From Candidatus Heimdallarchaeota archaeon (GTDB taxonomy: Archaea; Asgardarchaeota; Heimdallarchaeia; JABLTI01): a stretch of DNA of 32,000 nt. Where the stretch lies: the NCBI GenBank assembly GCA_030614005.1, contig JAUWKS010000032.1, positions 1-32,000 on the forward strand. Direction: 5' to 3'. The notes beneath the pieces are model-generated. The model was not told the origin of the DNA. It saw nothing but the letters and a program-made list of their open reading frames with translations, and made no database searches. The translations under genes were made by a program, and so were the position numbers. How positions within the stretch are numbered: position 1 is the first letter of the stretch; the number at the start of each line of letters is the position of its first letter. Below, in pieces: positions 25,789-29,092 of this stretch.

Positions 25789-27810
25789 AGTAGGTTCCGA
25801 CACGCAAACGCCATCTGGGGGATGGATTGGCTCGGACGCCGATGAAGGACGTGGCTAGCTGCGATAAGCGCGGGGTAGCTGCAGGCAGGCATAGAACCCG
25901 TGATTTCCTAATGGGAACTCCTAATGCGAACCAATAAGTCGCATTACTCCGTAAGGAGGGGGAACGCACCGGACGGAAACATCCAAGTAGGTGCAGGAAA
26001 AGAAATCAACTGAGATGCCCAGAAGTAACGGCGAGTGAAATGGGCATAGGCCAAACTGAATCCCCATACGCAAGTATTGGGAAATGTAGTGTTACGGACT
26101 CTCTATTGAGCTCTGCGATGCGAAGCTGAATATTCTGGAAAGCTTAACTAAAGAGGGTGATAGTCCCGTAAGCGTAAACATCCCTGAGTGTGAGAGTATC
26201 CTGAATAGCGGGGGTTGGAAATCCCTCGTGAATGGGGCACAACGAGCTCCAAGCCTAAATACGTTCCGAGACCGATAGCGCAATAGTAACGTGAGTGAAA
26301 GCTGAAAAGTAACCCGGAAGGGTAGTGAAAAGTGCCTGAAACCAGATGGTTATAGACGTTTGTGGCCCGAAAGGTAAGATCCTCCATGAAGAGAAAGCTG
26401 GTGACAGCTAGATCGTTTGGAGGGGACCGGGGTCACAAGTTCCGTCTAGAAACACGGACCAGGGAGGTCATACTTGTGGCAAGCTTAAGTGATGTCAAAA
26501 ACACGCAAGCGTAGCGAAAGCGACATGCCCGCAGTTTACAAGGGGCGCCGTCTGAAAGGGCGGGAAGTCACAGGTGTGAGACCCGAAACCGGACGATCTA
26601 CCCCTGAGCAGGCTGAAGCCTAGGGAAACCTGGGTGGAGGGCCGAGCAAGTATTGACGTGCAATTCATGTTTGTTGACTTGGGGGTAGGGGCAAAAGACC
26701 AATCTAGTCCGGTGATAGCTGGTTCCCAACGAAGTGGACATAGGCCAGCCTGCTCTGAGATGGAGCATTCGGTAGAGCAATGATTGATGGTTACGGGAAG
26801 TAAAATTCTCGCCTGTCAGTCAAACTACGAACGGATGTTTATCGTAGAAGAGTAGAGTCGGGCGTGCGTGCGTAAGGCACGTGGCCGAAAGGGGAATAAC
26901 CCAGACTATGGTTAAGGTCCCTAAATCTCGATTAAATGCTAAAATTGGAAGGACGTCATTGGACTAAGACAGTAAGGCGGTAGGCTTAGAAACAGCCACC
27001 CGCTAAGAAAAACGTAACAGTTTACTTACCGAGTCCTTTGGCTCCGAGAATGGACGGGGCTAAATCGAGTACCGATACCTTAGAATACATTGAAAGATGT
27101 AATTTGATAGTTGGGCGATCTGGTTGGGCGGAAGCAGGGCAGTGATGTCCTGTGGACCGATCAGATTTGCAGATCCTGGCGGTAGTAACAGCAAAGAGAG
27201 GTGAGAATCCTCTCCGCCGAAAGGGCAAGGTTTTCACGGCAACGTTCGTCAGCCGTGAGTTAGTCGATCCTAAGGGCGCTCTTATCTGCGGCGCTCGAAA
27301 GGGAAACAGGTTTAAATTCCTGTACTGCGTGGATACGTCAGAAGCGGCAACGCGAAGATCATTTTCTGACGCGACTGGATAAGCTCTGTAAAGTTATCGC
27401 TTTATTTAACTATATAACCCTCAGAAGTACCGTGACGGTGAGAATGAGGTGAAATTAGGAATAGGCTGCCAATAGTGGCGGCTCGAGCTTTTTCCACTCG
27501 CCCATGAAAAGGAAAATGATAAGGATTCCACGTAATCGTACCCAGAACTGACACAGGTGTCCCAAGGTGAGAAGCCTAAGGCGTGTTCGATCAACGATGG
27601 TGAGGGAAATCGGCAAATTCGCCCCGTAACTTCGGGATAAGGGATGCCTGTGGGCTTGAAAGGGCTCGCAGGTCGCAGTGACAAGGAAGGAACAACTGTT
27701 CAATTCAAACATAGCAAACCGCAAGGGTGAAAACCTGTGAACGGTTTGTGAATCCTGCTCAATGCTGGTATGTGAAAGCCGGGTCCAACCGGTCCAAGCA
27801 CCAGTCAATA

Positions 27811-27850
<40 letters not shown>

Positions 27851-28377
27851 TGTCGGATAAGTACCGACGTGCATGAACGGATCAATGATTCCTTCGCTGT
27901 CCCCACCGTCGATCGAGTGAACCCACTAGCCAGCGAACAGTCTGGCACCAACCAGCGGGAAGAGAAGACCCCGTGGAGTTTTACTGCAGCCTGTGCCTGT
28001 TTTACGGGTAGTTATACATAGTGTAGTCAGGAGCGTCGAACCAAATTCTCAGGGATTTGGGAATGCAACAATGAAACACTGACTTTAACGGCTTGTTTGA
28101 CTAACTTCTACTTCTGTAGAAGGACAAGTATTGGTGGGCAGTTTAGCTGGGGCGGCTGCGCTTGAAAAGGTATCGAGCGTGTCCAAAGGTTAGCTCAGAA
28201 GGGACGGAAACCCTTCGTAGAGTATAAGAATAAAAGCTAGCTTGACAGGGTTCTTTCCCATAGGGAACTCTGCAACGAAAGTTTGGTCTAGCGATCTGTC
28301 GATGGATCTCGTTGATTCACGGCAGCGGCAGAAAAATTACCCCGGGGGTAACAGAGTCGTCGCAGGCGAGAGCTCAC

Positions 28378-28446
28378 ACTCTCCAGACAAAAAGTTACCT
28401 CGATATATAAAGAAAGATCTAGGTTTACGTTCTGGAGGAGGAGTAT
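28378..28446 (+). other. 69-nt archaeal BHB intron in the helix 89 loop (between E. coli-equivalent positions 2477 and 2478)
   Basis: Central helix GCUC/GAGU, 3-nt bulges ACA and AUA, inner stem CUC-UCCAGA/UCUGGA-G-GAG, outer stem is H89. Splicing gives GAGAGCUCAC-AUCGACC. Confidence 0.92.
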
Positions 28447-28534
28447 ATCGACCCTGCGGCTTGCTACCTCGATGTCGGCTCTTCCTCTCCTGGCGCCGCA
28501 CAAGACGCCAAGGGTAGGGTTGTACGCCCATTAA

Positions 28535-28577
<43 letters not shown>

Positions 28578-28628
28578 ATTCTTTCTACTGGTTGTGCTGG
28601 GAAATTGAGGGTAGGGCAGGGTCGGTAC

Positions 28629-28689
28629 ATTGTATGAGATGTACAGATTCAAACTACATGATTAGTTTAGTAATCTCTTATAAGCCAAA
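28629..28689 (+). other. 61-nt archaeal relaxed-BHB/BHL intron in the sarcin-ricin loop (between E. coli-equivalent C2658 and G2659)
   Basis: 5' bulge ACA, inner stem UUGUAUGAGAU/AUCUCUUAUAA (10 of 11 paired), central helix CGGU/GCCA (one C-A mismatch), 3' AA|G. Splicing gives GGUAC-GAGAGGA. Confidence 0.88.
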
Positions 28690-28818
28690 GAGAGGACCCC
28701 CCCGTCGGCGCCTCTAGTCTACCGGTTATCTGACAAGGTAACGCCGGGCAGCCACGCGCCAAGCGATAATAGCTGAAAGCATCTAAGCTAGAAACGCGTC
28801 CTGAAACGAATTTCCCAT

Positions 28819-28946
28819 TCTAACGAAGTTTCGACAATGATTGACTCTTACAAGCTGTTTAGAGTTGTGTTACAATTATGAAAAATTATTTTTTTAGTTG
28901 GTCGTTTCGAGCATGGGAATGGCGACATTAACATGTTTTCGTTGGA
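28819..28946 (+). other. ~128-nt expansion segment at helix 98 (ES39 position)
   Basis: Inserted between UUUCCCAU and CGAAGGUUCC; closed by UCUAACGAA/UUCGUUGGA; branched hairpins; no BHB bulges. Confidence 0.85.
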
Positions 28947-29055
28947 CGAAGGTTCCGATACAAGATCGGTTTGAAAGGAGTGCGGTGTACGCGTCGAGTC
29001 TTCGGGCGAGATGCTCAGCCGGCACTTACTTACCACCTAAGCGTGTCATTACCGA

Positions 29056-29092
29056 AATGGACTTCTAGACCTTAAAGAAGAAGCGAGGGCCG
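29056..29092 (+). other. 3' arm of the pre-23S processing stem
   Basis: Complementary to 25754-25788. Confidence 0.75.

Follow-up and report, generated by a model that had tools for sequence, protein, structure and literature searches.

Bulge-helix-bulge (BHB) introns, short ORF-less ones included, have been known from archaeal rRNA genes since about 1990. Short ORF-less introns of this kind were reportedly described by Kjems and Garrett in 1991 in the 23S rRNA of the Desulfurococcales and Thermoproteales, for example in Staphylothermus marinus. The 69-nt insert analyzed here resembles those introns in being small and ORF-less, in lying in a conserved functional region of the rRNA (domain IV/V), in a BHB motif built from exon and intron together, and in its predicted dependence on the tRNA splicing endonuclease. 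It differs in host and in site: those introns belong to thermophilic crenarchaeota, whereas this one belongs to a mesophilic-sediment archaeon of the Heimdall group of Asgard archaea, at the equivalent of position 2477/2478 of Escherichia coli 23S rRNA. Its layout is also that of the canonical archaeal tRNA intron at position 37/38, in which, as is well established, each strand of the central helix lies upstream of its bulge, the 5' strand contributed by the exon and the 3' strand by the intron.

Archaeal rRNA introns have so far come mainly from thermophilic Crenarchaeota and Aigarchaeota, and the hosts given for rRNA introns in a review of the 16S examples are the Desulfurococcales, Thermoproteales, and Aigarchaeota only (Jay and Inskeep 2015, PMC4496867). 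The 16S introns of the Thermoproteales and Aigarchaeota (PMC4496867) reside in the small-subunit rRNA, unlike the insert described here, but are otherwise similar: unrelated introns occupy conserved loci, the BHB cores at their junctions are conserved, forms with and without a homing endonuclease co-exist, and presence varies among close relatives. The BHB processing stems that give rise to circular pre-rRNA and circular 23S rRNA (PMC7714728, PMC12918454) are expected to involve the same enzymes and motif, and the flanks of the present gene can likewise form a BHB-like stem, as read by eye; in that process, however, the rRNA itself is excised and circularized, while here 69 nt would be removed from within and the rRNA halves joined. 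Asgard tRNA introns (bioRxiv 10.64898/2026.10.13.758758) and the (alpha-beta)2 form of EndA (PMC5829648) belong to the same splicing system, and the present genome has intron-bearing tRNAs and two EndA genes, but the host RNA here is an rRNA, and term counts find no use of the term rRNA in that preprint. A study of Asgard expansion segments (PMC7594248) says only that known intronic regions were removed. Within the papers that our literature search covered, nothing was found on Asgard rRNA introns or on an LSU intron at 2476-2478; "uncatalogued" is a provisional description of the site. The picture is one of an ordinary mechanism at a widely shared and apparently undescribed site.

The DNA analyzed (the window) is a 32,000-nt stretch, contig C95 of a 3.6-Mb metagenome-assembled genome (MAG) of 126 contigs that is 90% complete with 3.4% contamination. 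We consider its positions 28378-28446 to be, very probably, a genuine archaeal BHB intron in the apical loop of helix 89 (H89), at the point that corresponds to E. coli 2477/2478. The original prediction, made from the window alone, had proposed the same, and four lines of evidence now support it: the identity of the predicted junction with intron-less relatives, 24 introns at the same site, the EndA and RtcB enzymes encoded in the genome, and the junction found in three LSU contigs of congeners.

The insert and its host gene

The host is an archaeal LSU (23S) rRNA gene on the forward strand (25794..29052) that matches Rfam model RF02540 over its full length with 2542.5 bits. At 3259 nt it exceeds the 2987 positions of the model, and no second LSU match occurs in the assembly; neither an SSU rRNA nor a tRNA was found within the window. 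When cmscan was run, and the model re-run on 28150-28700, the hairpin loop that closes helix 89 was found to hold 71 nt as compared to two in RF02540, with the insertion placed between GAGCUCA and UCGACC. The net insert is therefore 69 nt, 28378-28446, and both the coordinates and the letters given in the original prediction are correct. The cmscan structure line places the 5' strand of helix 89 at 28356..28371, ending in G28370 and A28371; downstream, the 3' exon (28448..28464) begins with their partners, UC, and continues as the 3' strand of the helix.

The insert encodes no ORF and is present once, with no other copy detected in the genome by blastn. No Rfam family matches it at the gathering threshold within the window, and a search of 28372-28452 at E<=10 gave just two lncRNA fragments at chance level. 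A self-splicing group I or group II intron was rejected, as no Rfam intron family matches and 69 nt is below the size of either core. We likewise set aside a mobile homing-endonuclease intron, 69 nt leaving no room for a LAGLIDADG-type ORF, and an intron that houses a guide RNA: no C/D or H/ACA boxes are visible by eye, and Rfam gave only the chance-level fragments.

A BHB motif across the exon-intron junctions

The central helix of the motif pairs the exon nucleotides GCUC (28372..28375, E. coli 2472-2475) with GAGU of the intron (28441..28444), and its four base pairs are found in both the minimum free energy (MFE) and the constrained folds. The 5' bulge is ACA (28376..28378), with a predicted cut at 28377/28378 in the canonical frame, and the 3' bulge is AUA (28445..28447), which neither the MFE nor the canonical fold pairs and which has its predicted cut at 28446/28447. 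On the exon side, the outer pairs G28370-C28449 and A28371-U28448 are the two native closing pairs of H89; the outer helix of the motif is only 2 bp long and is followed by the native 3x3 internal loop of H89. On the intron side, CUCUCCAGA (28379..28387) forms the 5' strand of an inner helix and pairs with 28431-28440 in two alternative registers, the 3' strand, UCUGGAGGAG (28431..28440), being paired in the MFE and the constrained folds alike. The remainder of the insert folds in the MFE structure into an irregular interior hairpin (28394..28428) composed of GU, ACCU/AGGU, and GAU/AUC.

The MFE fold of 28354-28466 has a free energy of -36.9 kcal/mol (z = -2.7 against shuffled sequences) and contains the 4-bp helix together with the AUA bulge and the interior hairpin. 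In its register the 5' side falls into a 4x2 internal loop, the inner helix has 8 bp, and CGA/UCG pair outside. In the strict 3-nt/4-bp/3-nt form the inner helix consists of CUCU/GGAG, a bulged A, and then 5 bp; at -33.2 kcal/mol this form lies 3.7 kcal/mol above the MFE register. The elements of a BHB, GA/UC, GCUC/GAGU, ACA, AUA, and CUCU/GGAG, are all able to form, and the constrained fold accommodates the two 3-nt bulges around a 4-bp helix that had been proposed. The original prediction further described the geometry as textbook and exact. The frame is available and correct and the motif can form, but with an outer helix of 2 bp, a bulged A, and a better MFE register, "exact" is a slight overstatement for the naked RNA. 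That the insert is unlikely to be a chance insertion holds, on the other hand: four of four central and four of four inner pairs occurred in the required frame in only 0.017% (1.7e-4) of 200,000 shuffles of the 69 nt.

The predicted spliced loop

Cuts after the second nucleotide of each bulge yield GAGCUCAC-AUCGAC, a 14-nt loop that is the same as in intron-less relatives and fits the Rfam LSU model. The spliced 14-mer aligns to E. coli GAGUUCAUAUCGAC without gaps. In the annotated 2903-nt copy of the E. coli 23S rRNA, GAGTTCATATCGAC occupies 2469-2482; with GGGAUAAC as the anchor, this range corresponds to 2470-2483 in the standard numbering, the range named at the outset, and the alignment puts the intron site between the equivalents of 2477 and 2478.

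Relatives whose H89 loop is uninterrupted show the predicted product or a one-base variant of it. The most direct comparison is between two loci of one genus, of which one (L031) is intron-less and reads GAGCTCACATCGACC, while its congener (L007) carries a 46-nt insert at exactly this point between identical flanks. The loci of family f2 are also intron-less at the H89 site (GAGTTCACATCGACC or ...CATATCGACC), as is L021.

Circular LSU contigs that lack the insert

When the JGI metagenome collection was searched for the spliced junction predicted above, flanked by genus-specific sequence, three contigs matched, L035, L036, and L037 (Ga0316596_1004734, Ga0307926_100854, and Ga0307927_1001851, respectively). 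Each is about 3 kb long, contains nothing but LSU rRNA, and is circularly permuted, the equivalent of window position 29076 being joined directly to that of 25773 (...GACCUUAA-AUCUAGAUC...). L036 even exceeds unit length, running through model positions 1958-2987 and then 1-2153. This joint lies where cuts after the second nucleotide of each bulge would fall in a BHB-like stem formed by the gene flanks; the stem was read by eye, and one of its four central pairs is mismatched. Circular 23S RNA has been reported for Asgard and other archaea (PMC12918454).

All three contigs carry the exact predicted junction, CUCAC-AUCG, and precisely the 69 nt are missing from them. The alignment breaks from 28378/28379 to 28446/28447; 28378 and 28447 are both A, a 1-nt ambiguity that leaves the product the same. 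Over the 59 nt that precede the junction the window is 100% identical to L037, and over the 182 nt that follow it shares 98.4% identity with both L036 and L037. Overall identity to the window is 88-92%, which indicates that the contigs derive from other species. In a maximum-likelihood tree of the exon sequences they fall inside the clade of the genus (support 99/99), with L035 sister to the gene of G009 (98/98); that gene carries the H89 intron and another one, and L035 is without both. In make-up the contigs resemble circular 23S rRNA, as assembled from two additional species of the genus. No genome would hold a circular arrangement of LSU sequence alone, and we therefore infer that they are RNA-derived. 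The simplest reading would then be that these congeners excise the H89 intron and ligate the exons, although the genes behind the contigs could also lack the intron, as other intron sites are polymorphic in the genus. Among sequencing runs, 14 recorded as RNA and one guessed to be so contain 0.30-0.59 of the sampled words, shares that are no evidence of anything.

Splicing machinery and a proposed route

The genome encodes two EndA proteins (PF01974/PF02778), one of 239 aa on contig C82 and one of 193 aa on contig C9, each with an N-terminal domain and a C-terminal domain of the catalytic type; the shorter also has a weak Sen15-like match. A single gene for RtcB (PF01139) is found on contig C59. 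Two EndA subunits fit the reported Asgard (alpha-beta)2 enzyme with its L1 loop, a type of broad specificity that tolerates relaxed motifs (PMC5829648). Across the whole genome (G000), ARAGORN predicts introns in 13 of 24 tRNA genes, one of these introns having an implausible length of 1057 nt; many tRNA genes of this 90%-complete genome were probably missed by the program, probably because they are interrupted.

We propose that in the precursor the exon loop nucleotides GCUC would pair with GAGU, the last paired nucleotides of the intron, and that this 4-bp helix would be flanked by the inner helix of the intron on one side and by the two pairs that close H89 on the other, leaving one 3-nt bulge on each strand. 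A two-subunit EndA, presumably of the alpha-beta type, could then cut after the second nucleotide of each bulge, and RtcB could join the exons so that the 7-nt H89 loop (GAGCUCAC-AUCGAC) is restored; RtcB would probably also circularize the 69-nt intron. The insertion, the motif with its conservation and covariation, the intron-less junction, and the genes for the enzymes are shown by the present analysis; for this species, cleavage and ligation in vivo and circularization of the intron are expected.

An alternative is excision of the 69 nt at the BHB with no subsequent ligation of the exons, which would leave the mature 23S rRNA fragmented at the H89 loop in the manner of bacterial intervening sequences or split rRNAs. 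We think this very unlikely, as L035-L037 read straight across the junction and RtcB, for which the products of EndA are the normal substrates, is encoded. What speaks for fragmentation is that unusual topologies are known from archaeal rRNA processing (PMC7758197, PMC12918454).

The same site in other archaea

To place the BHB intron among other archaea, we surveyed about 186,000 species genomes with a pattern that represents the 3' splice context before the 3' strand of H89. The pattern gave 34 loci, and once the 5' exon was located, 24 distinct introns of 30-849 nt, the window and the loci of its class included, were found to sit at the identical position. The record labels comprise Heimdallarchaeota, Hodarchaeota, Thorarchaeota (30 nt), Helarchaeota (96 nt), Promethearchaeota (32-36 nt), and Caldarchaeum (849 nt). 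The same 3' context also occurs in a Nanoarchaeota MAG and in further Aigarchaeota loci, whose 5' exon the script did not locate. No H89-site intron was detected in the Thermoproteales or Desulfurococcales among the roughly 186,000 genomes. Bacterial matches to the pattern (Chloroflexota, Pseudophaeobacter, and Myxacorys) were discarded, as the archaeal 5' exon context is missing from them.

In a fixed frame consisting of the outer 2 bp, the 4-bp helix, the 3-nt bulges, and the inner helix, 93.4% of cells are paired across the 24 introns; shifting the 3' partners by 1-3 nt lowers this share to 36-50%. Some of the pairing in the central helix arises by construction, because G-R-R was specified for its 3' strand in the survey pattern; no constraint was placed on the inner helix, on the 5' side, or on the frame. 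At inner pairs 1-4, all four Watson-Crick types occur at each position, and central pair h2 is divided between C-G (10 introns) and U-A (14 introns). The exon and intron strands of the central helix covary accordingly, as GCUC with GAGU or GAGC, GUUC with GAAC or GAAU, and GUCC with GGAU. ACA is the commonest 5' bulge (14/24), and the 3' bulge is AAA, AUA, or ACA in 21 of the 24. Several of these introns are far below 69 nt: those of L045 (Thorarchaeota BC), L047, L049, and L066 (Promethearchaeota) occupy the H89 loop with 30-36 nt and clean BHB frames.

The survey bears on a further alternative, that the insert persists in the mature rRNA as a small expansion of helix 89 specific to the lineage, its BHB-like pairing being incidental. 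Asgard LSU rRNAs do have large segments of this kind, ES9 and ES39 (PMC7594248). Yet the conserved apical loop next to the peptidyl-transferase center is no known expansion site, and lengths of 30-849 nt (a 28-fold range) in unrelated sequences that share one conserved BHB frame argue against an expansion, as do presence and absence within one genus (L007 versus L031) and the circular LSU-only contigs of congeners that are without the insert. We regard retention as highly improbable. One genome used in the expansion-segment study itself, RS678, has a 451-nt intron at the H89 site.

At the other end of the size range, the 849-nt BHB intron of a Caldarchaeum MAG (L057:5590-6438, CALHAG010000016.1) contains a sense open frame of 267 aa with a weak match to LAGLIDADG_3 (E 0.0022, below the curated cut-off). 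This LAGLIDADG-like match hints, but no more than hints, that the H89 site may once have been the target of a homing endonuclease, in which case the mini-introns could be its ORF-less forms.

The intron within the class and genus

The region was matched in 31 of 60 related genomes. In other families of the class, the H89 site holds introns of 46, 186, 221, 224, 339, and 362 nt whose sequences are unrelated and whose BHB motifs are clean. Within the genus, all five genomes in which the region is assembled (G000, the source of the window, and G005, G007, G009, and G010) carry a homologous intron of 68-71 nt that is 69-97% identical to that of the window, and over a 551-nt query with the intron included, identity at these loci is 89-99%. 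The genus-specific spliced junction was absent from all species-representative genomes scanned, which thus yielded no intron-less allele of the genus. The intron is inherited vertically within the genus.

MAFFT misaligned the 5' side of the window's intron against those of its congeners, and pairs were therefore counted by a script in a fixed junction frame. The inner helix shows compensatory changes from A-U to U-A within the genus. In the canonical frame, the first inner pair is a mismatch in G005 and G009 and the second is one in G007, indicating that in these three the region of the 5' bulge is looser than 3 nt. The interior hairpin (ACCU/AGGU, GAU/AUC) that had been read from the window is present in its MFE fold but is lost from the genus consensus fold, which keeps just 3 bp there, and we rejected it as a conserved element. 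The block GATCTAGG (28410-28420) is nevertheless invariant in all five members, the surrounding hairpin not being conserved.

The four other MAGs with the genus-specific intron, three labelled Candidatus Heimdallarchaeota and one Bathyarchaeia, come from different submitters. That the insert is an artefact of assembly or binning, or sits in a dead gene copy, has next to no probability even in a MAG of 126 contigs, 90% completeness, and 3.4% contamination, as the gene is the sole LSU copy of the assembly, scores 2542 bits over the full model, and has homologous introns in these four independently assembled MAGs. The contig labelled Candidatus Bathyarchaeia (L040, DATKZI010000020.1) holds a genus-specific LSU gene of the Heimdall group with the intron and corresponds to the sequence of G009; probably its label is wrong or the contig is misbinned.

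Implications

How such introns are known to work is unchanged by the present result. The present analysis shows small BHB introns within the catalytic core of the LSU rRNA in the prokaryotes most closely related to eukaryotes, with the loop of helix 89 as an insertion site common to several Asgard lineages. Pre-23S rRNA would thus be an essential substrate of the tRNA-splicing machinery at up to three places per transcript. In practical terms, inserts that are not removed can distort Asgard LSU lengths, alignments, and measurements of expansion segments, as well as probe and primer sites.

A more far-reaching possibility is that 2477/2478 is an old and recurrently occupied BHB site of Asgard archaea, Aigarchaeota, and possibly Nanoarchaeota, where ORF-less mini-introns (down to about 30 nt) are selected rather than decaying relics and where splicing by EndA and RtcB acts as an obligatory late checkpoint. 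We consider this unlikely. Were it true, the intron would tie up four nucleotides of the H89 loop and, with the sarcin-ricin loop of this gene split too, the peptidyl-transferase and factor-binding regions would stay unformed until the subunit is assembled.

Other insertion sites and unusual LSU copies

The window contains a second insert, of 61 nt (28629-28689), which splits the sarcin-ricin loop between GGUAC and GAGAGGACC. G005 has a 62-nt homologue of this intron, and none is found in the genes of G007 and G009 or in L035-L037; the site is therefore polymorphic within the genus.

A third site lies upstream of helix 89 in the peptidyl-transferase ring, between GGGGUA and ACAGAG (E. coli 2450/2451). 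It is empty in the window and holds inserts of about 190-200 nt in L005 (G005) and L006 (G009) and of about 400 nt in family f2 (L008-L016 and L022-L026), two single-contig genomes included. By eye, these inserts have a BHB-like GGGG/CCCU(C) helix.

Compared to the RNA-like contigs, the LSU gene of G007 has an insertion of 888 nt (L004:298-1185) in the region of ...ACUAUGACUCU and ...CUUAAGGUAGC, around the E. coli 1920s, a classic intron site. Two open frames, of 205 and 204 aa, lie within it on opposite strands, and the insertion may represent an intron with a homing endonuclease.

Finally, a few LSU fragments in genomes of the class are unusual. Those of L030 (G041) and L029 (G054) look bacterial (GGTTTGGCACCTCG; GATAACAGGCTGAT), and that of L021 (G015) deviates at near-universal positions (CTTCGATGTCGTCT); all three may represent contamination or divergent copies.
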